The notes under the pieces were generated by a model, which worked only from the letters and a program-made list of their open reading frames with translations, was not told the DNA's origin and searched no databases. Source: Pseudonocardiales bacterium (GTDB lineage: Bacteria; Actinomycetota; Actinomycetes; Mycobacteriales; Pseudonocardiaceae). From it: 64,000 bases of DNA. Each line of letters begins with the position of its first letter. The stretch's first letter is position 1. Positions 7,881 to 61,449 of the stretch are shown here, in pieces. The stretch covers positions 96,980-160,979 of the forward strand of contig JAHEXI010000008.1 of assembly GCA_023252195.1 (NCBI GenBank), in the 5' to 3' direction. Position numbers and translations under genes: made by a program.

Positions 7881-9047
7881 GTGACCACCGACATCACCGC
7901 ACTGGCTGACACACTCCAGGCGAAGGGACATCTTCCGAACGACTGGGACGAGGCGTTTCGCTCGGTGTTACGGGAGCGGTTCATTCCGGACCGAATCTGG
8001 GTGGATGAGCACGACGACGGCCACGATGTCGCGCTGGACCGCGCCAGCGAGCCGCAACGGTGGCGGGCAGCGGTGTACTCGAACCGCGTGATCGTCACCC
8101 AGTTCGATGACGGTGACACGGTGTGGCCGGACGTGGGCTACCGGCCTACGTCATCGTGTTCGATGCCCTCAGCGGTGCTCGGGATGTTGGATGCCCTCGA
8201 CGTGCGTGCGGGGATGCGGGTGTTGGAGATCGGCACTGGGACTGGCTACAACGCTGCCCTGCTGGCCGCGCGCCTGGGTGATGAGCAGGTGGCCACGGTC
8301 GAGGTCGACCCGGTGCTAGCCGAGCAAGCCCGGTCTTCGCTGATCGCCATCGGATGCACATCGACGGTGGTTTGCGGAGATGGTGCGGCGGGTTGGCGCG
8401 TTGGGGCCCCGTTCGACCGGGTCATCGTGACCGCTGCGGTGAAGCTCGGCCGAGTGCCGTACTCGTGGGTCAAGCAGACCACTCCTGGTGGGGTTATCCT
8501 CACCCCGCTCAAGACCGACTTCACCACCGGACCGTTGCTGGCTTTCGTAGTTGGCCAAGACGGCACCGCGACCGGCCGTGCTGTGCCGCTGCGTGTGGCG
8601 TTCATGGAAATGCGGGCGCAACGCACCCCGGTGATTAACTGGGACGGTATGCGCTGGGATGACCCTGACGCTGACCTTTCTCATACTGACGTGATGCCAT
8701 GGACGACGCTGGGCAACGAAGCGCCGCGGTGGGCCACCGCCGTCGCCGTACCCTCGTGCCGCTACGAGCTGTGGCCACGCACGCCTGGTCGCAATCCCCG
8801 CCACGGCGTGGCGTGGTTGGGTGACCCGCTGTCGGGGTCATGGGCCAGCGTCATCCCAGCCGAAACCGACGACCGGTATGAAGTCCGCCAGAGTGGTCCC
8901 CGCCGCTTATGGGATGAGGTGGAGGCCGCCTACAGCTGGTGGCTGGACCAGGGCAAACCGACGTTGGACCAGTGGCGGTTCACCGTGTCACCAGATCGCC
9001 AGACGGCTACGGTGGCGACAATCGCTGACCACGGCGCTCTTCGTTAG
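7881..9047 (+). CDS. Protein-L-isoaspartate O-methyltransferase (PIMT)-fold methyltransferase with extra C-terminal domain (RiPP-system-type architecture)
   Basis: SAM motif VLEIGTGTGYNAALLA and post-I/II motifs VATVEVD, GDGAAGW, FDRVIVTAA. 388 aa, with a C-terminal domain of about 170 aa beyond the PIMT core. Confidence 0.8.
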   Translation: MTTDITALADTLQAKGHLPNDWDEAFRSVLRERFIPDRIWVDEHDDGHDVALDRASEPQRWRAAVYSNRVIVTQFDDGDTVWPDVGYRPTSSCSMPSAVLGMLDALDVRAGMRVLEIGTGTGYNAALLAARLGDEQVATVEVDPVLAEQARSSLIAIGCTSTVVCGDGAAGWRVGAPFDRVIVTAAVKLGRVPYSWVKQTTPGGVILTPLKTDFTTGPLLAFVVGQDGTATGRAVPLRVAFMEMRAQRTPVINWDGMRWDDPDADLSHTDVMPWTTLGNEAPRWATAVAVPSCRYELWPRTPGRNPRHGVAWLGDPLSGSWASVIPAETDDRYEVRQSGPRRLWDEVEAAYSWWLDQGKPTLDQWRFTVSPDRQTATVATIADHGALR

Positions 9048-9062
9048 CCCGTTGCCCTACGG

Positions 9063-9126
9063 CTCCCGAGCTCCACAGCAGGGTTGCTCTGGCGGTCTCG
9101 GACAGCTCTGTAGTGGAGTTCGGGAG
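9063..9126. repeat. Family-A 64-bp palindromic element, copy A1
   Basis: CTCCCGAGCTCCACAGCAG...CTCTGTAGTGGAGTTCGGGAG form inverted arms. Same architecture as copies at 37781, 40279, 49128 and 57538. Confidence 0.75.
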
Positions 9127-9128
9127 CT

Positions 9129-10319
9129 GTGGAGCTGTGCAGTGACTGCACCAACTCGTCGGTCAGTGGATTTCGGCGCCACGCGGGTTATCGGGCGGCG
9201 TGGTCGCGAGCACAGCGTCCGAAGCCGACCAAGCTCTCGCGGCTACCAGGGTTGGCTGCGATGCCGCCGTCGGCGGCGGACCTGCCCCGGCGCGCGGCCG
9301 AGTTGGTCGCCAGCCAGTTCGACAAGGTCGCCGCGGCGGCCGAGGGATGTGACGTGCTGGTGGCGACCGGAGTGATGCCGACCGCGGCCAGCACGCGGTC
9401 GGTGGCCGAGAAACTGGGCATCCGCTCCGTGTCCGTGACCTTCCAGCAGCTCACCCTGCCGTCGCCGCACCACCCGCCGCTGGCGTATCCGGGCCGGCCG
9501 TTCCCGCCGGAGGTGACCGACAACCGGGTGCTGTGGGACCTAGACGCCCAGAACATCAACGCGCTGTTCGGTGCGGCGCTCAACACGAACCGGGCGTCGA
9601 TCGGCCTGCCACCGGTGGACAACGTCCGCGACTACGTCATCGGCGACCAGCCGTGGCTGGCGACGGATCCGACCCTGGATCCGTGGCAGGAGACGGCGGA
9701 CCTCGACGTCGTGCAGACCGGCGCGAGGATCCTGCCCGACGTTCGCCCACTCCCGGCTGAGCTGGTGGCGTTCCTGGACGCCGGCACACCACCGGTGTAC
9801 GTGGGCTTCGGCAGCATGGCAATGCAGACCCCGGCACTGCGCGCCCCGAAGGACATCGCCCGGGTGGCCATCGAGGCGATCCGCGCGCAGGGCCGCCGCG
9901 CACTCGTCTCCCGCGGCTGGGCCGACCTGGCCCTGATCGACGACCGGGACGACTGCTTCAGCGTCGGCGAGGTCAACCAGCAGGCACTGTTCACCCGGGT
10001 GGCCGCCGTCGTGCACCACGGCGGCGCGGGCACCACGACGACGGCCACCCGGGCCGGCGCACCTCAGGTGGTGGTACCCCAGGCGGCAGACCAGCCGTAC
10101 TGGGCCGGCCGGGTGGCCGACCTGGGCATCGGCACGGCACACGACGGTCCGACTCCGACCACCGAGTCCCTGTCAGCCGCGCTCAGGACGACCCTGACCC
10201 CCGAGACCCGTGCCCGAGCAACCGCCGTAGCCAGCACGATCCGCACCGACGGAGCAACGGTGGCCGCGACGCTGCTGCTCGACGCGATCAGCCGGGAAAA
10301 GCCGCCAGTGCCCGCGTGA
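9129..10319 (+). pseudogene. 5'-truncated GT1 glycosyltransferase, GtfB/vancomycin-group-like (N-terminal Rossmann half-start missing)
   Basis: From about residue 50 the protein tracks my recollection of GtfB-type GT1 enzymes (FDKVAAAAEGCDVLVATG...SVAEKLGI...IGLPPVDNV...VQTGA.ILPD.RPLP.EL.AFLDAG.PPVY.GFGS...HHGGAGTT...ADQPYWAGRV...). The first roughly 55-70 residues, including the MRVL..GSRGD motif, are absent. They are replaced by repeat A1-derived sequence. Confidence 0.6.
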
Positions 10320-10412
10320 ACCACGCGGGATCGTCGAGCCAGGGAAAGTGCCCGGCGTTCGCCAAAGCGCTAAGGAGGGGGTTGCGCCACGCCGGGAACG
10401 TAGGGTCAAGGC

Positions 10413-11237
10413 ATGCAGATGCCGCGGCTGGTCGCCACCGACGTTGACGGCACCTTGCTGGACCCGACCGACCAGGTTTCTGAGCGTACTCGGGCCGCGG
10501 TGCATCGGGTGGTAGCGGCCGGGGTGCCGTTCGTACTGGTCACCGGTCGGCCGCCGCGGTGGATCCCGCCGATCGTAGAGCAACTTGGCCACGCCGGGCC
10601 GGCGGTGTGCGCCAACGGCGCGGTGCTCTACAACGCTGCGACCGACCAGGTCAGCTACATGGTGACGCTGGATCCGATGCAGCTGCGGGATGCGGCGGAG
10701 GTGATCGCCACCGCGCTGCCGGGCGCGAAGCTTGCGGTCGAGCTGCCCGCCGCAGGCGCCGCGCGCAACGGTGCCGAGCAGTTCCTCGCCGAACCGGGCT
10801 ACACCCACCCCTGGCCGGGCGGGGACTCCGTCGACGCGCCGCGCGATGTGCTGCTCGGCCGACCGGCGATCAAGTTGCTGGTCCGCCAGCCGAATGCCAG
10901 CAGTGACCTGATGGCCGCCGCGGTTCGCGAGCTACTCGGTGCCGCATCAGGGGGCCGCCTCGACGTCACGTACTCCACCGGCTACGGCCTGATCGAGCTC
11001 TCCGCGCCCGGCGTCACCAAGGGCACCGGGCTGGCCCGGCTGGCCGGGCAGCTGGGAGTCGCGCCGGCCGATGTGCTGGCTTTGGGTGACATGCCCAACG
11101 ACCTGTCGATGCTGCGCTGGGCGGGGCACGGAGTGGCCATGGCCAATGCCCATCCCGCCGTGCTCGAGGCCGCCGACGAGATCACTGCGGGTAACTCCGA
11201 GGACGGTCTCGCGATGATACTCGAGAGGTGGTTCTGA
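10413..11237 (+). CDS. Cof-type HAD-IIB family hydrolase (sugar phosphatase-like)
   Basis: LVATDVDGTLLD motif I, VLVTGRP motif II and LGDMPNDLSML motif IV. 274 aa. Confidence 0.85.
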   Translation: MQMPRLVATDVDGTLLDPTDQVSERTRAAVHRVVAAGVPFVLVTGRPPRWIPPIVEQLGHAGPAVCANGAVLYNAATDQVSYMVTLDPMQLRDAAEVIATALPGAKLAVELPAAGAARNGAEQFLAEPGYTHPWPGGDSVDAPRDVLLGRPAIKLLVRQPNASSDLMAAAVRELLGAASGGRLDVTYSTGYGLIELSAPGVTKGTGLARLAGQLGVAPADVLALGDMPNDLSMLRWAGHGVAMANAHPAVLEAADEITAGNSEDGLAMILERWF

Positions 11238-31436: not shown

Positions 31437-31450
31437 CGGGGCTGGTGCGT

Positions 31451-31525
31451 GTCGTGAACTCGACAGCACCGACCTTTTTCGTGCGCTCGCAGGTCGGTTT
31501 TGTCCGTGAACTCGACAGCACCGAC
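31451..31525. repeat. Family-B element locus B1: two direct copies of the left arm (one truncated element plus one solo arm)
   Basis: GTCGTGAACTCGACAGCACCGAC (31451-31473) ... GTCGGT(truncated) ... CGTGAACTCGACAGCACCGAC (31505-31525). Confidence 0.7.
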
Positions 31526-31618: not shown

Positions 31619-32509
31619 GTGATCGACGAACTGACCCTCGGCGCTACGCCCTTCCGGGGATCCGGTGCTGTGCAGCGCGGGCTGCTCACCGAGCGGACGC
31701 TCCGCGGCCCCCGGTACCGGCGACTGTTCCCCGACATCTACCTGCTCGCCGATGTACCGACTGATCTCGCCACCCGATCGCAGGCGGCGCTGCTGCTCGT
31801 TCCGGGGCAGCGCGTACTGTCCGGTTACTCGGCAGCCGAACTGCTCGGGGCGGGTTGCGCGCCAGCGGAGGCTAACGCCGAGCTGACGGTGCCTGGCGGT
31901 GACTTCCGGGAACAACCGGGGCTCACTATCCACCGTGATCTGCTCGCGAACGACGAGATCGGCGACTGCGGCGGCGTCCCCGTCACTACAGCGCTGCGGA
32001 CGGCGTGGGACTTGGCCCGGTGGTTGCCCACAGTGGAGGCGGTGGTGGCGATGGACGCGCTGACCAGCGTTGGGCGGTTCACCTCGGCGACCGTGCTGCG
32101 CATCCAGGGTCGGTACCCGCGGGCGCGTTGGTGCCGTCGTGTCCCCGGGGTGATCGACCTGTCCGACCCCCGAGCCGAATCGCCCATGGAGACCCGCTCG
32201 CGGCTTGTGCTCGTGCTGCGCGGCCTGCCGCGTCCTGAACTGCAGTACACCGTGTACACGGCACTCGGGGAGTTCGTCGCCCGCCTGGACATGGCGTACC
32301 CGCTGCTGAAGCTGGCGATGGAGTACGACGGCCGGGGTCACCTCACCGCCTGGCAGCAGCAGTCTGATGCCCGCCGCCTCAACCGGCTGGACGCCTGCGG
32401 CTGGTCAGTACTCCGCTTCACCTCACCAGACGTCCTCCGCACCCCAGACGCCACAGCCGCCCAAGTCCGCGAGGCCATCGCGCGCCGCTCCCGGCGCTCC
32501 GTGTCGTGA
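31619..32509 (+). CDS. DUF559 (Vsr-like endonuclease fold) protein with AbiEi-like N-terminal domain
   Basis: C-terminal ESPMETRSRLVLVLRGLPRPELQY...LDMAYPLLKLAMEYDG..H...D..R.N.L...GW.VLRF is the DUF559 pattern. 296 aa. Confidence 0.8.
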   Translation: MIDELTLGATPFRGSGAVQRGLLTERTLRGPRYRRLFPDIYLLADVPTDLATRSQAALLLVPGQRVLSGYSAAELLGAGCAPAEANAELTVPGGDFREQPGLTIHRDLLANDEIGDCGGVPVTTALRTAWDLARWLPTVEAVVAMDALTSVGRFTSATVLRIQGRYPRARWCRRVPGVIDLSDPRAESPMETRSRLVLVLRGLPRPELQYTVYTALGEFVARLDMAYPLLKLAMEYDGRGHLTAWQQQSDARRLNRLDACGWSVLRFTSPDVLRTPDATAAQVREAIARRSRRSVS

Positions 32510-32567
32510 ACTCGACATTACCGACGGTTTTCGTGCGTTTATGCGTCGGTGGTGTCGAGTTCACGAC
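32503..32567. repeat. Family-B 65-bp palindromic element, copy B2
   Basis: GTCGTGAACTCGACATTACCGAC-19 nt-GTCGGTGGTGTCGAGTTCACGAC fills the gap between the convergent DUF559 and dprE2 genes. The TGA of DUF559 lies inside the left arm. Confidence 0.85.
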
Positions 32568-37700: not shown

Positions 37701-37795
37701 AGTGCGGTGCCGGTAGACCGATGCGCAACCCTGGACAGCGCCAAGCCTCCCGCGGCGATCGTTCCTACCTCAGCTCTACCGTTCCCGAACTCCAC
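34721..37795 (-). CDS. Emb-family GT-C arabinosyltransferase, paralog 1
   Basis: About 1024 aa. First-loop DD motif [28 protein letters not shown], 13+ TM helices and a C-terminal carbohydrate-binding domain. The annotated GTG start lies inside repeat A2, so the true start is uncertain. Confidence 0.9.
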
Positions 37796-37844
37796 AGCAG
37801 AGCTGCCAGATCCTCCTCAGACAACTCTGTTGTGGAGTTCGGGA
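37781..37844. repeat. Family-A 64-bp palindromic element, copy A2
   Basis: GTTCCCGAACTCCACAGCAG-26 nt-CTGTTGTGGAGTTCGGGA lies between the helD stop and the Emb paralog 1 start. Confidence 0.85.
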
Positions 37845-40278: not shown

Positions 40279-40335
40279 CAACTCTACAGTTCCCGAACTC
40301 CACAGCTGCAGGCCGAGGGCCTGCCAGATCTCCTC
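40279..40335. repeat. Family-A element, partial copy A3 (left arm and internal segment only)
   Basis: CAACTCTACAGTTCCCGAACTCCACAGCTGCAG..CTGCCAGATCTCCTC shares the internal CTGCCAGATC(C)TCCTC with A2. No right arm was found. Confidence 0.6.
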
Positions 40336-46787: not shown

Positions 46788-46844
46788 ACTCGACAGCACG
46801 GACGTTTCGGCGCCGAAAAATGTCGGTACCGTCGAGTTCACGAC
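46781..46844. repeat. Family-B 64-bp palindromic element, copy B3
   Basis: GTCGTGAACTCGACAGCACGGAC-18 nt-GTCGGTACCGTCGAGTTCACGAC lies between the convergent antiporter and vapC. Confidence 0.85.
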
Positions 46845-46865
46845 ATGGACCACCGGCGGCTGGGT

Positions 46866-47556: not shown

Positions 47557-50500
47557 TCAGTCGGTGGCGTTTCCGTGGTAGCTCTTGGCGGCGAGGGTGG
47601 GAAGGCGCGTCCAGCCGGCCCTGCGGACCGCGTGGACGTGCAGGTCGACCAGCCCGACGGGGTGGTCGTAGACGACCCGCTCGACCCGGCCCCAGGGCAA
47701 CGTGGGCGGCCCGCTGGGCACCAGCCGGGCGGGCATCCGCACGGCAGTGCCGGAGCGGCTCACCGGCACCTCAGTGCCGCCCCGGTGCAGCTCGAACCCG
47801 AGATCGAGGAAGCCCCGGCCGAAATCCTCGTCGCTAAGCAGCAGCACCTGGGGGGCACGGGCGATGCCATGATCGACGCCGACCTGGTCGAGGCAGGGCA
47901 ACAGCGCCGCGGTGAGCTGGTCGACGTACACCGGCCGGCTGGCGATAAACGTCGTCAGCGGACGCCACGTGGCCAGCCGCGGCTGGCCTACCGCAAGCCA
48001 GCTGTCGGCATCGGTCTCCATCCAGTCGCGGATCACCACCCGCACGCTCGACGGCCGCTGCTTGCCGAGCCGGTCCAGGGCAACGGCTGCTTGGTGCCAC
48101 TGGGTCCTGGGCACGGCCGGGTCCGGCCGCAGCGATGCGCTGCCCGCCACGGCGGGGTTGCGCCCAGCGGCGGTGGCGTACTCCAGGGTCAGCTGCTGGG
48201 CGGCTCGAGCGCCGAGCAGCGGGACCAGCAGGGTGCTGCCACCATCGGGTGGCAGCGCGAACCACGGCGTGACGAGCAAGCCCGCCGGGCTCGTCAGTGA
48301 GCTCGTGTCCGGGTCGCTGCGCAGGTCGGTGTCGACGGCGTCGTGCCAGACCAGCGTGCCCGGATTCGGCGCGGGCACTGGCTCGGGTAACGGCCGGTTC
48401 GCGGCAGCGGCGAACCCACCCTCGGTGATCGCCGATCCGACCGGCACCGGTTGTGCCGGTATGTCGACTAGGACCTGTGCGTAGTCGGCCAGTGAGCACG
48501 GTTGGCCTTGGACCGCCCGAACCGCAGACAGGGCCACCGACCAGCCCGGATACTGCCGCAACGGCGCCCACCAGAAGACCACGATGATCATCACCACCAT
48601 CGCCGTCGAGCCGGTCAGCAACACCGCTCGGTCGGGAGTCAGTGCCGAGTCCCGATCGCGGCGCCGCCGCCACCACATCCATCCGCCTGCGGCCACCGCG
48701 ACCGCCACCCAGACCAGCGGGTTTGCCAGCTGCACGGGGCCCAGCTTCGGGCGCATGCCCACCAGGTCGGGGTGGTCCGCGGACGCGGTGAGGTGGTTGC
48801 CGAAGGGCTGGCCGCGGTCGGAATAGGGCCGCCACAGGTTGGGCCCGGCGAAACTCCAGGACACCGCACCGATCATCAGCGCTGTCCCCACCGTGGCCGC
48901 GAGGACGCTGGCACGATGGCGCCGCAGACCAGCCTGCACCGCGGCCAACAGCGGGGAGCGCAGCAGCGCGGCGGCGAGCAACACCATGGGCGCGGCCGCC
49001 GCCGCCCCGAAGTGGTTGACGAACTTCGTCGGCGTCGGAGCCAGTAGCGCCAAGGCCAACGCCGAGCACCCCGCACTGCTCACCAGCAACCGCCGCACCG
49101 GATCGTCGCGGTCCCCGTTGCCTGACTCTGCGCTTCCCGAACTGCACAGCAGTGCTGTCCGCAGCCGGGTGAACAGCGCTGCTGTGGAGCTCGGGAAGCG
49201 CAGCGCACGTGAGCAGTTCAGAGCGACGACTAGCAGGACGGCGATTGTGAGCACCACAGGGGCTCGGCGGGCCCACTGGCTGGAATCCTCGAAGCTCAGG
49301 ATCGTCTTGTAGTGGACGTTCTCCTGGTACCAGGAGAACGTCTGGTAGTACCACCGGTGCACTGCGGCGGACTCGAGCACGTCGCCGAGCGTCGCGTCGG
49401 CGAATCCCACCAGCACCAGGCTGGTGCTCGCGGCGGCCAGTACCAGGACCGCAGCCACCCGCGCCGCGGCGCGCTGTGCGCGCAGCCACCGCCACAGCCA
49501 CGGCAGGGCCAGCACCAGCGGTGCGATGGCGACCAGCCCGGACGGGGAGACCGACATCGCTAGCGCGGCGGTGGCGGTGGCGGCGGCGAGCGCGCCGACC
49601 GAGCGGCGTCGCCGGGCCAGCTCCGCCAGCAGCAGCGTCGCAGCGGCCAGCAGCACGATCAGCGGTTCGGGACGCAGCGTCATTCCGTAGGGCAGCCACC
49701 ACAGCAGGTAGGCCACCAGCAGCGCCCAGGTAGCCCGGCTGGTGTCCAGCTCGCGACCGAAACCCGCAACGAGCAGCAGGCGCAGCAGCAGCCAGGTGAC
49801 CAGCCCGTAGGCCAGCGGCACCAGCCGCATCCACGCCAGGCCCCACCCGCCGAGCGAACCCCACAGCTGCAGCACGTACTGGCTGGCCACGAAGGGGTTC
49901 TCGGTAACGTTGAACATGTAGATCGCATTGCCGACCGACCCTGAGGCGTTGGCACCGCGGGCCATCTGCATGTACCAGGAGTCGTCGAAGTTCGTCGGAG
50001 CCAGCAGCACCCACATCGCCGAGACGACGACTAGCACGGCGTCAGCGACGTGTAGGCGAAGTCGCGCGGGTGCAGCGGTTATCGGCTGGGCGCCCCACCA
50101 CCGCCAGGCCAACCCGAGCAGCATCAGCAGGGCCGCGGCGCAGGTCACTAGCAGTCCGGTCTTCAGCGCTGTCGGGGTGGATTCATAGCGGGCATCGGTG
50201 TGTAGCGACACCGCCAACCCCGACGCCGCCGGCTGGCCGTCCAGCTCGGTGGTCAGCTCGCTGACCTCCGGTACCTGCACCGACGCAGAGCCGCGTCGCA
50301 GCCCGTCGCGCAGTACCCGCACGCCGCCGGCGTCGGCCAATACCCGGTAGGTACACCCGCCGTCCGGCAGCACCTCGCGCAGCACCGTCCGGCCCGAGGC
50401 GGTCACCTGCACCGTGCCGCCGTGGACCGCGACGACCAGACCCTGGCTGAGCTGGCCCGGCTTGCCGGCGGTGGCGGGCAGGGTGCGCAGCGCGTCGCCG

Positions 50501-56595: not shown

Positions 56596-57456
56596 TCATA
56601 CCCAGTAGGAGACTCGGGCCCGGTAGTTGCGCAGGATCAGTAGTGCTGCCGCCCACCCCACCACAGTGATGGCCAAGGTCACCACCCAGTGCCGGGGTTC
56701 GAACGACTGACCGATCATCGGGCGTCGCAGGATCTCGACGAAGTGCAGGAACGGGTTGAGCTCGGCCAGCCGGGCCCGCTCCGCTCCCGGACCGCCCTTG
56801 CTGATCAGATCCTGGTAGTTCCAGACGATCGGCGTCATGAAGAACATCAGGGTGACGACGCTGGTGGTCACCGGGGGGATGTCGCGGTAACGGGTCGCAA
56901 TGATCCCGATCAGGATCGCCACCCAGGCCCCGTTGAGCACGATCACCGCCAATGCCGGCAGCGCCATCAGGCTGCCCCACCCCAGGTGCGTTCGGAAAAT
57001 CACCACCAGGGCCGCCCAGACCAGCACGTTATGCCCGAAGAACAGCAGTTGTCGCCAGACCAGCCGGAACACATGCACACTCAGCGGCGCGGGCAGATGC
57101 TTGATCAGGCCCTCGTTGCGGATGAAGACCTCGGCGCCTTCGTTGATGCAGCTCGCCATGAACTGCCAGATAATCAGCCCGACGGCCAGGTAGGGCAGGA
57201 AGAACGCGATCGGTTGACCGAACAGTGCCGCATAGAGCAGCCCCATACCCAGCGCCTGGACTCCCAGGCTGATCGTGATCCACAACGGTCCGATCACCGA
57301 GCGCCGGTAACCCTGCCTGATGTCCTGCCAGCCCAGATGGCCCCACAGCCGACGTTGCTGCCAGCCGGCCCGCAGATCACCGAATGCCCGAGACCAGCTC
57401 CGGGATGACAGCGCCCGGTCCGCGGTGATCTCCGGTGCCGCTGCGGTGTACTGCAT
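56596..57456 (-). CDS. rfbD: ABC-2 type transporter permease (Wzm/RfbD-type)
   Basis: ATG 57456 gives 286 aa with 6 TM helices (..YRRSVIGPLWITISL..). The longer ORF (to 58050) reads through repeat A5 and is rejected. Confidence 0.85.
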   Translation of the reverse strand: MQYTAAAPEITADRALSSRSWSRAFGDLRAGWQQRRLWGHLGWQDIRQGYRRSVIGPLWITISLGVQALGMGLLYAALFGQPIAFFLPYLAVGLIIWQFMASCINEGAEVFIRNEGLIKHLPAPLSVHVFRLVWRQLLFFGHNVLVWAALVVIFRTHLGWGSLMALPALAVIVLNGAWVAILIGIIATRYRDIPPVTTSVVTLMFFMTPIVWNYQDLISKGGPGAERARLAELNPFLHFVEILRRPMIGQSFEPRHWVVTLAITVVGWAAALLILRNYRARVSYWV

Positions 57457-57537
57457 GGTCCGCGAGGGTACCCGTGCGGTCTCCGGACCCCCGGCCTGCG
57501 GGTGCGCCAGCCGCTGCCCGCGCCCGGTCCACCAAGC

Positions 57538-57601
57538 TTCCCGAACTCCACAGCGGAGCTGTCCGACGTTGATCAAACAGCGCTGCTGTGGAGTTCGGGA
57601 C
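57538..57601. repeat. Family-A 64-bp palindromic element, copy A5
   Basis: CTTCCCGAACTCCACAGCGGAGCTGTCC-11 nt-ACAGCGCTGCTGTGGAGTTCGGGAC lies 82 nt upstream of the rfbD start. Confidence 0.85.
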
Positions 57602-57649
57602 ACCCAGAGTTCGGGGGACGCAGGGCACGCGAGTGCGGAGGGGGGAACT

Positions 57650-58122
57650 TTGCGCTTGGGTACCACGGTCGTCTCGGCGTTCAGCGCGCTGACGGTCGCG
57701 GCACTGGGACCCGGTGTCGCCCCGGGCGGCGCCGCTGCGCAGACGACGTCGACGTTCCAGCAGCGGCGACCCACGTCACGGCGGCGGCCGTGGTCGCGGC
57801 CTCCGCGGTGGTGGAGAAGTGCCCGCGGGCGGGCGGCAACTCGCTGGTGTCTTCGGCGAACACCGCCTATCCGGCGCACCCGGATGACGTGCAGCGCTTC
57901 TGCCGGTATCTGACCGAGGTCTGTGATAGCACTACTTCGGCTGAGGTGGTCGAGGCCTACGTCCAAGGGTTGGTCCAGCTGCCGGGGTGGCTGACCGGCC
58001 TGCCCGGTGGACGGCCACGGGGCTGCTCGCTGGCGGGTGCTGGTCAGCACCGCGCCGCCGGCTTGCTTTGCTTCCCAAATCGGGCCGGTGTCCAGGAGGT
58101 CAGCGCCTCCTCGCTCTGCTAA
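57650..58122 (+). pseudogene. Small secreted Cys-rich protein, apparently frameshifted near 57725-57745
   Basis: TTG 57650 lies 5 nt after GGAGGGGGG. Signal peptide LRLGTTVVSAFSALTVAALGPGVAPGGAAAQ is in one frame. The high-GC3, protein-like continuation DDVDVPAAATHVTAAAVV...EKC..RFC..EVC... is in another frame, ending at 58122. Confidence 0.35.
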
Positions 58123-58184
58123 CGGGAGTGTTGAACAGCTGCTAACGGATTTTTTGGCCGGCTGCTAATGGGCGGGCTCCTCGT
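58116..58184. repeat. Three phased direct repeats CTGCTAAYGG with an exact 23-bp period
   Basis: Copies at 58116, 58139 and 58162, between or overlapping the convergent 3' ends. A T6 run lies in unit 2. Confidence 0.5.
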
Positions 58185-59409
58185 TGACGTCGAGGTCGGG
58201 TTGTTCGGCGTAGCTGAAGGTGATGGGGGCGACCTCGGTGCGCGGGTGGTACGAGGGGTCGAGCCGGACGAGGTCCCACTCGTTGATCCAGGCCCGCACG
58301 TACTGGCGCATCCGGGTGGTGCCCAGGCGTTCCAAGCCGGTCACCTCCGGGGCGTTCCAACCGAATGCCTCGGAGTGCAGGGCCTTGAGCCGCTGGTAGG
58401 CGTAGTCGAGCTCGTCGGCGTCGGGGGTGGTGAGCAGCAGCATGTCGCGCTCGATCAGACCCATGGCGGTCTGCGCCCGGGTGGCGATCTCGTCCCATTC
58501 GGCTACCTGCTTGGCGCGCAGCTTCGCCGGGACCACCTCCCGGTCGTTCTTCGCCGTGAGCACCGCGGCGTCGAAGTCGTCGGTCATGGCCAGCACGGTC
58601 GCCAGCGGCGACGCGGGGTCGTCAGTGTCGGGTTGCAGCCACTGGGCCAGCTCGGCGTAGGAGCGGCCGCGTTGCTGCAAGGTGTAGCGCCCGATCAGCT
58701 CGACCTCGTCGAACAGCAGTACCCAGCCCTCGCAGCCGGCGGTGACGAGCAGCCGGGCCAGGAAGCGGAATCGCTGACGGGCCAGCTCCCGCGCGGGCAC
58801 CGGGGCCAGCGCCGGACGTCCCAGCCCGGCGAACTTGGCGTGCCGGCGTACTTCAGCGACGGCCAGACGATCCCCGGACCAGAACCTGACGATCGCGTCG
58901 GCGAAGTTGTCCTCGCTGGCCTGCACCCGCGGGAACAGGGTCAGCGTCAAGGGAAACCACTCGTCGACCGGGGCGCCGGCGCCACCGGCCCAGCGCACCA
59001 GCTCGGCGAAGGCCACGCCGTCGGGATCCAGGCCTGCGGCTGCCTCGGCCATCGCGCCGACCGACCCGTCGGGCAACACCGCGGATTCCACCGCGGCGCG
59101 CAGCACCTTGGCCGGGTCGTGCAGCGGCGTCTCCTTGCTGACCACGATGCGGCTCACCGCGTACCCGCGGTCCAGGGCCAGGTGGGTCAGGTGTTCCAGG
59201 ACGTGGCTCTTGCCCGCGCCGAACCCGCCACCGAGCAGCAGCCCCCGTGGTCCGGAGCGGACCTGACCGATCCCGTCGATCAAGGTGGTGAACCGGTCCT
59301 CGATGTCGGACTGGCCGCTGCCCAGCGCGGTCACCGCGTCCCTGCTGGGCACCCCCGCCCGCAGGGCCTCGACCGCGCGCCGCGCGGTGAGCCGGACCGA
59401 CGTATTCAT
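58165..59409 (-). CDS. DUF2791/BrxC-BrxD(PglY)-type P-loop ATPase (third gene of orphan cassette)
   Basis: ARRAVEALRAGVPSRDAVTALGSGQ.., Walker A LLLGGGFGAGKSHVLEHL and Walker B GWVLLFDEVELIG. 414 aa. ATGA overlap with the upstream gene. Confidence 0.7.
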   Translation of the reverse strand: MNTSVRLTARRAVEALRAGVPSRDAVTALGSGQSDIEDRFTTLIDGIGQVRSGPRGLLLGGGFGAGKSHVLEHLTHLALDRGYAVSRIVVSKETPLHDPAKVLRAAVESAVLPDGSVGAMAEAAAGLDPDGVAFAELVRWAGGAGAPVDEWFPLTLTLFPRVQASEDNFADAIVRFWSGDRLAVAEVRRHAKFAGLGRPALAPVPARELARQRFRFLARLLVTAGCEGWVLLFDEVELIGRYTLQQRGRSYAELAQWLQPDTDDPASPLATVLAMTDDFDAAVLTAKNDREVVPAKLRAKQVAEWDEIATRAQTAMGLIERDMLLLTTPDADELDYAYQRLKALHSEAFGWNAPEVTGLERLGTTRMRQYVRAWINEWDLVRLDPSYHPRTEVAPITFSYAEQPDLDVNEEPAH

Positions 59410-60413
59410 CGAACCACCTCCAGGCGGGTCTCCAGCCGGACCAGCGCGGCGAACGGGTTGGCGCGGCGGCGGTCCCGGATCTCGTCGACGACCCGCAGGT
59501 GCAGGGCGCTGTAGGCGGGCAGGCCACGGGTGTCGTCAGTGACCAGCTCAGGTGGCACCGTCACCGCGACGAACGCGCTGCGCAGGTTGTCGGTGGCATC
59601 GACGAGCTGGCGCAGCACCTCGTAGGCATCGAGCACTGCGGCCTTGCTGTAGTAGTGGCCGGCGCGCTGTTCCAGCGGGGGGCGGCGGGCAACTGCGAGC
59701 CGGCTCAGGTCGACGTCCAGTACCAGGCCCGACCCCGTGACGCGGGCCCGCCACGCCGCCAGCGACACCAGCAGCGACCGCGCGTTGTGCCGGGCGACCC
59801 GCCCGTACAGGGTTGCGGACTTCAGCATCCGCAGTGCGACCGGCTCGACCCGCAGCCAGGCCAGCACCGCATCGCGTTCGGTGTCGAGGACGTCGCCGGT
59901 GGCGAGCTCGCACTGGCACAGCCGCAATACCGCCAGCCGGAACTCCCGGTCCAGCGACGGGTCGCGCAGCAACGCGGCCTCCAGGTGCCGGCGCATGCTC
60001 CGGGCAGCCTCCGGCACGGCGACGTCGTGGTGCGCGGCGACCGTGGCCACCGCCAGCTCGTCAGGCGCGGACGGGGGCAGACCCAGCGATTCCCACCCGG
60101 CGCGCACCTGGCGTCGTGCGAGATCGCACCAGTCGACCTGGCGGGCGACGGCGGCGAAGACCTGATCGATCAGGTGCACCCGGTGATCCGCCGCGTCCAC
60201 CGCGACGCACAGGTAGCCCTCTGCGTCGGCGATGGACGCCAGGCTGCGGTGCCAGCGAACCGCAACCTCGTCGCTGCCGGCCACGACGAAGCGCACCGCG
60301 GCCCCGCCAGCGCGGACGTAGTCGCCCAGGTACTCCTTGGCCACGAATTCGGCGTACTCCTCGGGTCCCAACCCGATCCCGCCCGCAGGCAGGCCGCCAC
60401 GGATCTCGCTCAC
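59406..60413 (-). CDS. Hypothetical protein, apparent Walker-A-less paralog of the adjacent ATPase (second gene of cassette)
   Basis: 335 aa. AVRFVVAGSDEVAVRW..AEGYLCVAVDAA..VHLIDQVFAAVA aligns by eye to the ..LLLGGGFGAGKSH..DRGYAVSRIVVS..LHDPAKVLRAAV core of the ATPase. GLVLDVDLS sits at the Walker-B position. GTGA overlap upstream. Confidence 0.55.
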   Translation of the reverse strand: MSEIRGGLPAGGIGLGPEEYAEFVAKEYLGDYVRAGGAAVRFVVAGSDEVAVRWHRSLASIADAEGYLCVAVDAADHRVHLIDQVFAAVARQVDWCDLARRQVRAGWESLGLPPSAPDELAVATVAAHHDVAVPEAARSMRRHLEAALLRDPSLDREFRLAVLRLCQCELATGDVLDTERDAVLAWLRVEPVALRMLKSATLYGRVARHNARSLLVSLAAWRARVTGSGLVLDVDLSRLAVARRPPLEQRAGHYYSKAAVLDAYEVLRQLVDATDNLRSAFVAVTVPPELVTDDTRGLPAYSALHLRVVDEIRDRRRANPFAALVRLETRLEVVR

Positions 60414-61300
60414 CCTGTGTCCTCCTCACCCCGACCGGACTCACTGCCGGTAGGGCCCGACTCGACCGCGATGCCCCAGTACCGCTGTTGCTGCCCGCTC
60501 ATGGCCACCGTGGTGAGTACACCGGCCTGGCGGGTGCCCGAACTCGCAGCCCAGCGCAGCCGCCGCCCGCCGGGACCGGCGGTCTCACCGCTCTGGTCGA
60601 GCAGGTACAGATCGCGGGCGAACTCGGCGCGGGTGTAGTCCCGGGACTGCCCGGGCAGCAGCGTCAGAGCGTTGTAGACCTCAAGCAGCCGCACCACCGA
60701 GCCCGGCGGCTTGGCCTGCCCGGCGACGACGAGATCGTAGGCGCCGACCAGGCTCGCCAGGAACGGCGCCGGCTTGAACCGGGGCCCGGCCCGCTGTGCC
60801 TTGGCGAGCTGTGCGACCACGACCGATGGTCGGATCCCGCGGGCCCGCTTGCGGTCGATCTCCAGCGCGAGGTCGCCGGGCAGCACCCGCACGATCGACG
60901 GGTAGCACAGCAGCCGGTCGTCCTCGGCGAACATAGCGACGTCCGCGGCTTCGGCCTCGGCGAGCAGCTCCTTGGCGTAAGCACCAGAGCCGAGCATGTC
61001 GACTTCGTCGACGTCGTAGGCAGTGGCCGCAGCGCCCACTCGCTGCACGACCTCACCGGCCATCGCCTGCACCGCGTCCAGGGCCCGGCGCAACTCCCTC
61101 ACCTGGCCCGACGCGGCCGCAGCGTGGGCCCGCTTCAGCTCGCGAGTCAGCGAGGCGACGGCCTTGCTGCTGGTCTCCACCGCACGCTCCACCCTGGTGA
61201 GCGCGCCCTCCAGACCGGCCGTGTCCTGGCTGCTGCTTGCTTCCTCGTCCTGCATGGGCGACAGGGTATCCACCAGCTCGCCGCACGATGCCCCGCCCAC
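60410..61300 (-). CDS. Hypothetical coiled-coil protein (first gene of cassette)
   Basis: 281-296 aa (GTG 61300 or ATG 61255). The N-terminal helical/coiled-coil half reads LTRVERAVETSSKAVASLTRELKRAH... The C-terminal half is globular (..VVRLLEVYNALTLLPGQSRDYTRAEFARDLYLL..). I recognise no family. Confidence 0.55.
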   Translation of the reverse strand: MGGASCGELVDTLSPMQDEEASSSQDTAGLEGALTRVERAVETSSKAVASLTRELKRAHAAAASGQVRELRRALDAVQAMAGEVVQRVGAAATAYDVDEVDMLGSGAYAKELLAEAEAADVAMFAEDDRLLCYPSIVRVLPGDLALEIDRKRARGIRPSVVVAQLAKAQRAGPRFKPAPFLASLVGAYDLVVAGQAKPPGSVVRLLEVYNALTLLPGQSRDYTRAEFARDLYLLDQSGETAGPGGRRLRWAASSGTRQAGVLTTVAMSGQQQRYWGIAVESGPTGSESGRGEEDTG

Positions 61301-61384
61301 ATGCCTGAGTTGAGATTGCCGCTCGACGCGGGGTCTTCGGCAGCGTCGCCCCGAGATCGTCGGGGTGCGCCGAAGACGGTCGCT

Positions 61385-61449
61385 GCCGTGAACTCGACGG
61401 TACCGACATTTCGCTGGGCGAAAAGGTACGTATTGTCGAGTTCACGGCA
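61385..61449. repeat. Family-B 65-bp palindromic element, copy B4
   Basis: GCCGTGAACTCGACGGTACCGAC-19 nt-GTACGTATTGTCGAGTTCACGGC lies in the divergent spacer between the cassette and the CocE-like gene. Confidence 0.8.

Follow-up and report, generated by a model that had tools for sequence, protein, structure and literature searches.

The Shango system consists of a TerB protein (SngA), a DUF2791 ATPase (SngB) and a helicase (SngC). Like BrxD of type 2 BREX, SngB is an ATPase whose mechanism is still to be explained, although both Shango and type 2 BREX are widespread anti-phage systems. BrxD is a standalone AAA+ ATPase of the ORC/Cdc6 type with no additional domains. It forms a tight pair with the BrxHI helicase, which it has been proposed to load or activate (PMC12839542), and Orc/Cdc6 ATPases are recurrent in conflict systems (PMC10853773). 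Here, we analyze a three-gene cassette, g1-g2-g3 (hereafter, the triad), located in a 64,000-nucleotide (nt) stretch of DNA from a Pseudonocardiales bacterium (contig JAHEXI010000008.1, positions 96,980 to 160,979), which we refer to as the window. Its last gene encodes a BrxD/SngB-like ATPase, and we are moderately confident that a widespread and apparently undescribed defence-type (conflict) system is built around this ATPase, with the triad as its conserved core.

A coupled operon around a BrxD/SngB-like ATPase

An initial annotation of the window, made by reading its sequence, had described three minus-strand open reading frames (ORFs) joined by 4-nt GTGA and ATGA overlaps, and we read the same coordinates and junctions (Table 1). 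These overlaps represent translational coupling of g1 with g2 and of g2 with g3. The g1/g2 junction is a 4-nt overlap in 59 of the 77 Actinomycetota-clade loci, and the g2/g3 junction in 69 of 74, as well as in 22 of 52 distant loci. In addition, the ratio of nonsynonymous to synonymous substitution rates (dN/dS) is far below 1 for all three genes: 0.07-0.13 for g2, which is the most constrained, 0.15-0.20 for g3 and 0.21-0.41 for g1. As the overlaps recur across loci and all three genes are under such constraint, the cassette is not a chance arrangement.

The assignment of g3 to the BrxC/BrxD family, which the initial annotation had made from the sequence, is supported by profile searches. 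With 56.0 bits for a gathering threshold of 22.2, g3 is a member of Pfam family PF10923 (BrxC_BrxD, DUF2791), and among PADLOC models it matches BrxD (3.1e-18) and, weakly, SngB (0.0017). Its score on the NCBIfam BrxD equivalog (NF033438), 65.5 bits (4.6e-18), is below the cutoff of 350, and the match falls mostly within the N-terminal ~115 residues. The g3 ortholog of locus L100 scores 74.3 bits on the same NCBIfam model (cutoff 350) and matches PADLOC SngB at 1.8e-11. As PF10923 is passed while the NCBIfam BrxD cutoff is missed by far, g3 is a member of the DUF2791 superfamily but not a BrxD.

Walker A (GGGFGAGKSH), Walker B (LLFDEVE) and RRAVEALRAGVPSRDAV are all present in g3, as had been noticed earlier, and all three are identical throughout 22 relatives. 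More broadly, Walker A (GxxxxGK[ST]) is found in 109 of 123 g3 copies. Further conserved motifs are an N-terminal RRAVEALRxGVPSRD, SKETPLHD and a C-terminal RMRQYVRAWINEWDL, the last two being invariant among g3 relatives. Precomputed annotations place PF10923 on essentially all homologs of g3, and on essentially all homologs of g2 as well. Sequence searches of the PDB with g1, g2 and g3 returned nothing significant, with BrxC only at E 0.6-0.95. From its motifs and profile matches, g3 is an active-looking, BrxD/SngB-like AAA+ ATPase of the ORC/Cdc6 type.

A degenerate paralog of the ATPase

It had been proposed that g2 is a degenerate paralog of g3 with a possible remote match to PF10923, and both expectations were borne out. 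g2 scores 27.6 bits on PF10923 (threshold 22.2), through its C-terminal half. Its ortholog in L100 matches PADLOC BrxD (2.6e-09) over model positions 47-326 of 440, that is, the whole ATPase core, and NCBIfam BrxD at 4e-08 (32.8 bits, cutoff 350). No relationship between g2 and g3 was detected by BLASTP, nor by hhalign on shallow alignments; using 119 diverse sequences per profile, hhalign aligned residues 39-241 of g2 onto residues 24-243 of g3 (E 9e-05, probability 59%).

In this alignment, the g3 segment GGGFGAGKSH lies opposite AVDAADHRVH of g2, and the g3 Walker B opposite LVLDVD. The initial annotation had thus located the Walker B equivalent of g2 correctly, but had placed the P-loop position at AGSDEVA, which is one beta-alpha unit too N-terminal. 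As GxxxxGK[ST] is found in none of the 140 copies of the g2 family, g2 is a degenerate PF10923 member. g2 is an ancient paralog of g3 and lost the P-loop at the root of the family. A C-terminal arginine-rich motif, RGLPAYSAL..R..DE.RDRRR.NP, is strongly kept.

The AlphaFold2 model of g2 has a predicted local distance difference test score (pLDDT) of 88 and a predicted template modelling score of 0.86. A Foldseek search with this model returned non-significant matches to P-loop nucleoside triphosphatases (NTPases) exclusively (RecB, HslU, UvrD, BrxC 9zll/9zdx, ORC2, TrwB and RecA). An AbiEii/Rv1045-like nucleotidyltransferase, at which a phmmer match hinted (E 0.02), was considered and rejected, being backed by neither the fold nor Pfam.

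A founding member of a protein family

An exhaustive search for relatives of g1 gathered 623 clusters at 50% identity, almost all of them 255-270 aa long, in which the motifs LLCYPS, RPS, LTLLPG and EFARDLYLLD are kept family-wide. g1 has no match above threshold in Pfam, PADLOC or NCBIfam. Sequence searches of the PDB gave only coiled-coil composition matches, and a Foldseek search of the PDB and BFVD gave no match. g1 founds a protein family without any Pfam, NCBIfam or PADLOC model. Its AlphaFold2 model (pLDDT 80) consists of a long N-terminal antiparallel helical hairpin followed by a C-terminal alpha/beta domain, in agreement with the earlier description of a protein that is half coiled-coil and half globular and belongs to no nameable family.

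The longest g1 ORF begins at GTG 61300 and encodes 296 aa, while a start at ATG 61255 would give ~281 aa. As most homologs are ~262 aa long and the closest ones begin with MQDEE or MRDEE, the start is probably ATG 61255.

We also considered g1 as a JetA/kleisin/SMC-like protein. Its match to PF11855 (DUF3375), the family of the Wadjet kleisin JetA, reaches 16.9 bits (E 0.0031) for a threshold of 28.6 and covers the coiled-coil part only, and Foldseek against a JetABC chain gives E 3.3. This candidate was rejected: the matches to DUF3375, to PADLOC LmuB (0.0064) and to designed coiled coils of the PDB are all confined to the hairpin and are sub-threshold or composition-driven.

Distribution and conservation as a unit

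In a collection of one genome per species (185,579 species), relatives of g1 were found in 250 species-level genomes, all from Actinomycetota, the count being that of genomes matching one motif pattern. Carriers belong to Pseudonocardiales, Mycobacteriales, Frankiales, Geodermatophilaceae, Propionibacteriales, Streptosporangiaceae, Micromonosporaceae and Dermatophilaceae. Most are metagenome-assembled genomes (MAGs), and one is Actinoplanes subtropicus NRRL B-24665.

We defined the new family by a g1 homolog, a P-loop-less PF10923 paralog and an intact PF10923 ATPase, encoded on the same strand and close or overlapping. The window carries g1, g2 and g3 in this arrangement, and scores 315, 631 and 818 bits, respectively, on local hidden Markov models of the three proteins. 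The order g1-g2-g3 is kept in the ~150 loci that are long enough, the exceptions being two loci with split ORFs (L045 and L081) and contig ends, and the ORFs are intact in ~72 of 74 loci. In L045, g2 is split in two ORFs (8768-9785), and in L081, g2 and g3 are each split in two (8786-11090); the splits reflect either sequencing errors (frameshifts) in MAGs or the pseudogenisation of rare copies. Across Pseudonocardiales and Jatrophihabitantaceae, g1-g3 are ~70% identical.

The surroundings of the triad change while the triad itself does not. Three g3 homologs located on long contigs show the same triad with differing neighbours. Among relatives with 91-97% identical g3, rfbD/rfbE/glfT1 follow the triad in only one genome (L004, which is the same as L019), and eight other such relatives, for which 4.5-5.7 kb of downstream sequence is available, have none of these genes there. 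As contexts differ even between relatives this close, the position of the triad next to rfbD is not fixed, which rules out that the two are constant core-genome neighbours. The suggestions that the triad might be conserved as a unit and might move between contexts are thus upheld. The module is under purifying selection, patchy in its distribution and positionally mobile.

Genomic neighbours in Actinomycetota

We scanned the neighbours of the triad at 52 non-redundant Actinomycetota loci. PIN-domain proteins make up 8 of the 139 Actinomycetota neighbours. No universal fourth gene was found in the Actinomycetota clade, as no neighbour family occurs in more than nine loci across 75.

At five loci (L061, L072, L073, L079 and L084), the triad is directly preceded, in divergent (head-to-head) orientation, by a complete Shango system, whose genes encode a protein with TerB_N and TerB_C domains, an ATPase that scores ~495 bits on PF10923 and a DEAD helicase. 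Four of these loci form one subclade, while L061 lacks g3 and stands outside the tree. The linkage persists in this subclade even though it has diverged to 64-85% identity. The triad-linked SngA, SngB and SngC are 706-841, 435-460 and ~750-790 aa long, respectively (for example, at L073:2054-8224, minus strand). One of the five loci, L084, is from Actinoplanes subtropicus NRRL B-24665.

In two other loci (L056 and L063), a SNF2 helicase of ~947 aa directly follows g3, with a 4-nt overlap in L056. This helicase is at the edge of the NCBIfam SCO1167/SCO6262 family, with 1189.7 bits for a cutoff of 1200.

A separate observation concerns L038, L040, L042, L043 and L051, in which the gene immediately before the triad, read from the other strand, encodes an ATP-dependent DNA ligase (DNA_ligase_A_N/M/C; for example, L040:6002-7789, minus strand). 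These loci belong to one uncultured Actinomycetes lineage, and their ligase is compatible with a DNA-repair association as well as with a single-lineage coincidence.

Distant relatives and a five-gene form

A metagenome scan with distant members of the family detected at least 569 relatives, from which we kept 80 loci of 36-70% G+C. The triad is intact wherever the contig is long enough. We also looked at single distant relatives of g1. In L085 (39% G+C), the triad is followed by a 529-aa superfamily 2 (SF2) helicase matching PbeA (2e-65), and genes for a TraG-type coupling protein, for excisionase-like helix-turn-helix proteins and for a Mrr endonuclease lie beside it. In L088, the triad comes directly after PbeC (1.5e-123) and a Dnd-associated (DndE-like) gene, and it is likewise retained in L089 and L090.

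Wherever a distant-clade locus extends far enough downstream, a gene of ~188 aa (g4) begins 4-44 nt after g3, whereas the deep-branch loci L085-L087 and L089 have other genes in its place. Searches of Pfam, of PADLOC and of NCBIfam gave no match to g4. The next gene, g5 (509-743 aa), often overlaps g4 by 4 nt and carries SNF2-rel_dom and Helicase_C domains, to which the ~740-aa forms add a C-terminal Mrr_cat nuclease. The best PADLOC match of g5 is ZorD (SWI2/SNF2 helicase, Mrr-like nuclease; 7e-76). g4 shows the pattern MPIPYRDADDL.ELG.AGYLKI...GALFLINARGEPIEFTYNRIETPHTFLWRQADIRRHA... (for example, L100:13086-13652) and in all cases separates the gene of the BrxD-like ATPase from that of the SNF2(-Mrr) helicase. 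In one locus, L154, two five-gene copies lie ~3 kb apart: the end of g3 with g4 and g5 (L154:6-3386), then g1-g2-g3 (L154:6443-9022).

We took g4 and a SNF2(-Mrr) gene after g3 as the mark of the five-gene form. No g4 homolog was detected in the window, nor in the loci of the Actinomycetota clade (L001-L084), and the window carries the three-gene form. The initial annotation had called the cassette an orphan, which holds for the lineage of the window but not for its relatives with g4 and SNF2(-Mrr), with a SCO1167-type SNF2 or with Shango.

We concatenated g1, g2 and g3 of 119 loci and built a midpoint-rooted neighbour-joining tree, in which a large three-gene clade of Actinomycetota stands apart from the five-gene clade, and L085 and L088-L090 are on deep branches. 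The window is located in the three-gene clade, within a tight Pseudonocardiaceae group. Next to the Shango-linked subclade, the SNF2-extended loci form a neighbouring subclade. As the Shango and SNF2 linkages are each confined to a single subclade, each of them may be the result of one event. The bare triad looks derived, as helicases are present in all non-actinobacterial branches with enough sequence, although midpoint rooting leaves this direction unproven.

Other features of the window

The G+C content of the triad region is ~70%, equal to that of the surrounding DNA. In the window, the triad is flanked by a CocE/NonD-like hydrolase gene on one side and by rfbD/rfbE/glfT1-like genes on the other. 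No consensus promoter or terminator was found around the cassette, which is uninformative at a genome G+C of ~70%. The interval that separates g3 from the rfbD-like gene holds two plus-strand ORFs (57320-58122), which overlap but use different frames, one with a signal-peptide-like stretch (LRLGTTVVSAFSALTVAALGPGVAPGGAAAQ) and the other with a plausible mature domain (GNSLVSSANTAYPAHPDDVQRFCRYLTEVCDST...). They may represent a frameshifted or mis-sequenced gene for a small secreted protein.

The palindromic repeats said to bracket the cassette do exist (Table 1). They belong to two dispersed families, A and B, with arm sequences TCCCGAACTCCACAGCGG and TGCCGTGAACTCGACGGTAC, respectively. Arms of both are much more numerous in the window than expected by chance (nine versus 0.12 for family A and five versus 0.02 for family B). 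The repeats do not accompany the triad: family A was not found in 170 related loci, and family B is restricted, beyond the window, to the nearest relative, where it once more sits just ahead of g1 (L004/L019, 6922-6936). We thus rejected the palindromes as borders of a mobile cassette, since both families are scattered repeats that are specific to the lineage and whose presence is not conserved along with the triad. They may be elements of the repetitive extragenic palindrome or miniature inverted-repeat transposable element type, or operator sites.

Table 1. Positions of the triad, its motifs and the intergenic repeats (window numbering).
Feature	Position	Strand	Basis
g1	60410-61255 (61300 for the longest ORF)	-	ORF call; start from homolog lengths and alignment
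g2	59406-60413	-	ORF, 335 aa
g3	58165-59409	-	ORF, 414 aa
GTGA overlap (GTG start of g2 over TGA stop of g1)	60410-60413	-	Sequence ...cagGGTGAgcg
ATGA overlap (ATG start of g3 over TGA stop of g2)	59406-59409	-	Sequence ...ttcgATGAata
g3 Walker A, residues 60-69	59203-59232	-	
g3 Walker B, residues 231-237	58699-58719	-	
g2 P-loop-equivalent segment AVDAADHRVH, residues 71-80	60174-60203	-	hhalign to g3
g2 Walker-B-like strand LVLDVD	59709-59726	-	hhalign to g3
Repeat family A	9064-9125, 37783-37844, 40291-40308, 49135-49196, 57539-57600		Intergenic palindromes (57539-57600: 24-nt arms, 92% complementary)
Repeat family B	31450-31469, 32502-32521, 46826-46845, 61384-61449		Intergenic palindromes (61384-61449: 28-nt arms, 82% complementary)

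Possible function and alternative explanations

What speaks for a defence-type system is that the core has repeatedly acquired links to known defence genes and to SF2 helicases, some of which carry a nuclease. The triad also behaves as an accessory element, being patchily distributed, set in differing contexts among relatives with 91-97% identical g3, devoid of any universally conserved neighbour and, in places, close to PIN-domain genes. On the likeliest view, it would be the sensor/loader core of a new conflict system that combines an ATPase, a helicase and a nuclease. ORC and clamp loaders are active/inactive AAA+ assemblies, and BrxC-BrxB offers another example of such a pairing. By analogy, g2 and g3 may form an active/inactive hetero-oligomer, with g1 as the adaptor that fits this pair to a target or partner. 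The resulting complex would recognise foreign DNA, or replication intermediates thereof, in an ATP-dependent manner. Recognition would then recruit, load or activate an SF2 helicase(-nuclease), as proposed for BrxD with BrxHI, and the helicase(-nuclease) would destroy or block the invader. As the lineage of the window has no dedicated effector, the helicase may be encoded elsewhere in its genome, or the triad may act alone through ATP-dependent DNA binding.

For the effector-less triad, we tentatively entertain two possibilities, which even taken together we regard as a long way from established. It may be an autonomous surveillance machine, able to block foreign replication without any nuclease, or an exchangeable sensor/loader serving varied helicase effectors, in either case as an ORC-like hetero-oligomer of the live and the dead BrxD-type ATPase with g1 as a novel adaptor. 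In the latter case, its partners would be ZorD-like SNF2-Mrr proteins, SCO1167-type SNF2 proteins, PbeA-like helicases and SngC of Shango, a list that we put forward just as tentatively.

Several points weigh against a defence-type system. Both the conflict function of the triad and the g2-g3 hetero-oligomer, with g1 as adaptor or sensor, are features that we infer, the latter by analogy. No nuclease, helicase, methyltransferase or toxin gene lies inside the operon of the window. Nor is there any helicase, Shango or g4 homolog in the 64-kb window, where no homolog of SNF2 or PbeA-like proteins is present and tblastn with SngA, SngB and SngC of L073 detected nothing, and most Actinomycetota loci are likewise effector-less. 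Apart from the loci described above, Actinomycetota flanks consist mostly of housekeeping genes, with PADLOC matches in a minority of neighbours, and the association with defence islands is thus weak in this phylum. The family was not found in plasmid, phage or viral-contig collections. The proteins g1-g3 evolve slowly, without the hypervariable sensor regions that are common in defence proteins. Finally, structural support for g2 is weak, as its best Foldseek match has an E of only 0.011.

Some of these points would equally suit a housekeeping-like module, that is, an ORC- or clamp-loader-like complex which in Actinomycetota would serve host repair, replication restart or chromosome organisation, the helicase-nuclease forms of other phyla being a separate exaptation. 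We consider this explanation unlikely, though worth retaining. It would account for the lack of an effector in the operon and the window, for flanks that are mostly metabolic or housekeeping, for slow evolution under strong purifying selection and for absence from plasmid, phage and viral collections. It is also consistent with the ATP-dependent DNA ligase at position -1 in one lineage, with UvrD-type helicases among neighbours and with the top PDB sequence match of g3, a DnaC/DnaI-like primosome component, although this match is non-significant. However, the triad is patchy and not universal in its distribution, and its contexts vary between relatives with 91-97% identical g3. The head-to-head arrangement with Shango across a diverged subclade, the fusion of Mrr to the helicase in sister clades, the Pbe, Mrr and TraG neighbours and the enrichment of PIN toxin genes nearby also argue against it.

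The same linkages could instead mean that the triad is a non-autonomous accessory, namely a sensor or regulator that has no activity by itself and is added on to the helicase of another system (for example, SngC of Shango or the SCO1167/SWIM SNF2 helicase, which is widespread in actinomycetes), with its partner located elsewhere in the genome. We consider this quite unlikely. The adjacency of Shango in the five loci listed above, across a short divergent intergenic region, would fit such a role, as would the translational coupling of a SCO1167-family helicase to g3 in L056 and the presence of a helicase gene in the same operon in every non-actinobacterial locus that is long enough. However, at most Actinomycetota loci no helicase is linked to the triad over 5-8 kb, and the Shango and SNF2 linkages, being restricted to one subclade each, are possibly single historical events.

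Lastly, a decaying remnant, i.e., a five-gene system that has lost g4 and the helicase-nuclease and is heading to pseudogenes, would be in line with the missing effector genes of the sister clade and the split g2/g3 of L045 and L081, but it is very improbable, being essentially refuted by dN/dS values of 0.07-0.26 against close relatives (up to ~0.4 for g1 in two pairs), besides the intact ORFs in ~72 of 74 loci, the retained Walker motifs and 4-nt overlaps and a clade that spans many actinobacterial orders.

If the triad is indeed the core of a defence-type system, it is a candidate new system that occurs in 250 or more actinobacterial species as well as in many further bacteria, most of them uncultured, with g1 and g4 as unannotated components. 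The family offers a minimal and strongly conserved three-protein version of a DUF2791 machinery, in which an active ATPase is combined with its obligate dead paralog and a single adaptor, and its variants with and without helicase-nuclease effectors would allow sensing/loading to be separated from killing. Should the effector-less form act alone, it would be a rare case of nuclease-free DNA surveillance in Actinomycetota. Should the triad be an autonomous machine or an exchangeable module, it would represent new phylum-spanning immune "front ends" and provide a handle on BrxD and SngB in BREX and Shango.

Comparison with known systems

None of the named system models in PADLOC, NCBIfam or Pfam fits the triad, and PADLOC-DB 2.0.0, Pfam (2025) and NCBIfam 20.0 (June 2026) hold no models for g1, for g2 as such or for g4. 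No description of the gene set was found in the full-text literature that we covered, subscription literature excepted, so that it may have been described before. The initial annotation had noted that no BREX (PglX, PglZ) or Shango (TerB, helicase) partner adjoins the cassette, and we agree: its flanks are the hydrolase-like and rfbD/rfbE/glfT1-like genes mentioned above, with no helicase in the window. As the defining partners are absent and equivalog cutoffs are widely missed, the triad is not BREX, Shango or Zorya.

Compared with type 2 BREX (Pgl), the resemblance lies in BrxD, which is the top named model for g3 and for g2 orthologs. However, no PglX, PglZ, BrxC, PglW or BrxHI is found next to the triad, neither a methyltransferase nor PglZ recurs around it at 52 + 21 loci, and neither the pseudo-ATPase paralog g2 nor g1 is a BREX component. 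The triad is thus outside BREX. In type 1 BREX, BrxC-BrxB similarly combines an active P-loop ATPase with a dead P-loop partner (PDB 9zll and 9zn5; BrxB has been described as an inactive STAND NTPase), and the weak fold matches of g2 include N-terminal domains of BrxC. Yet g2 is a paralog of the ATPase (PF10923) and not a BrxB/DUF1788 homolog, so that the likeness is in logic only.

The g5 of the five-gene relatives shares the SNF2, Helicase_C and Mrr_cat architecture of type I Zorya ZorD. However, g5 scores 154 bits for an NCBIfam ZorD cutoff of 1500, is not accompanied by ZorA, ZorB or ZorC, and is absent from the window, where g1-g3 have no PADLOC Zor match; the locus is thus not a type I Zorya.

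Shango, like the triad, is a three-gene set around a PF10923/DUF2791 AAA+ ATPase, which in Shango works with an SF2 helicase. Unlike Shango, the window has no TerB protein or helicase, SngA, SngB and SngC being absent from it and g1 lacking a TerB domain. In addition, g1 and g2 have no Shango counterpart, and g3 reaches only 0.0017 on the SngB model and 56 bits on PF10923, versus ~495 bits for a genuine SngB. Where both are present, Shango and the triad are separate, divergently transcribed operons. In its pairing of an ATPase with a helicase, the cassette comes closest to Shango and to the BrxD-BrxHI dyad, and its extended relatives use a ZorD-like effector. The triad is best filed as a variant within the conflict systems that combine a DUF2791 ATPase with a helicase, apparently undescribed, with an unusual effector-less form under strong selection and bringing in two unannotated families, g1 and g4.

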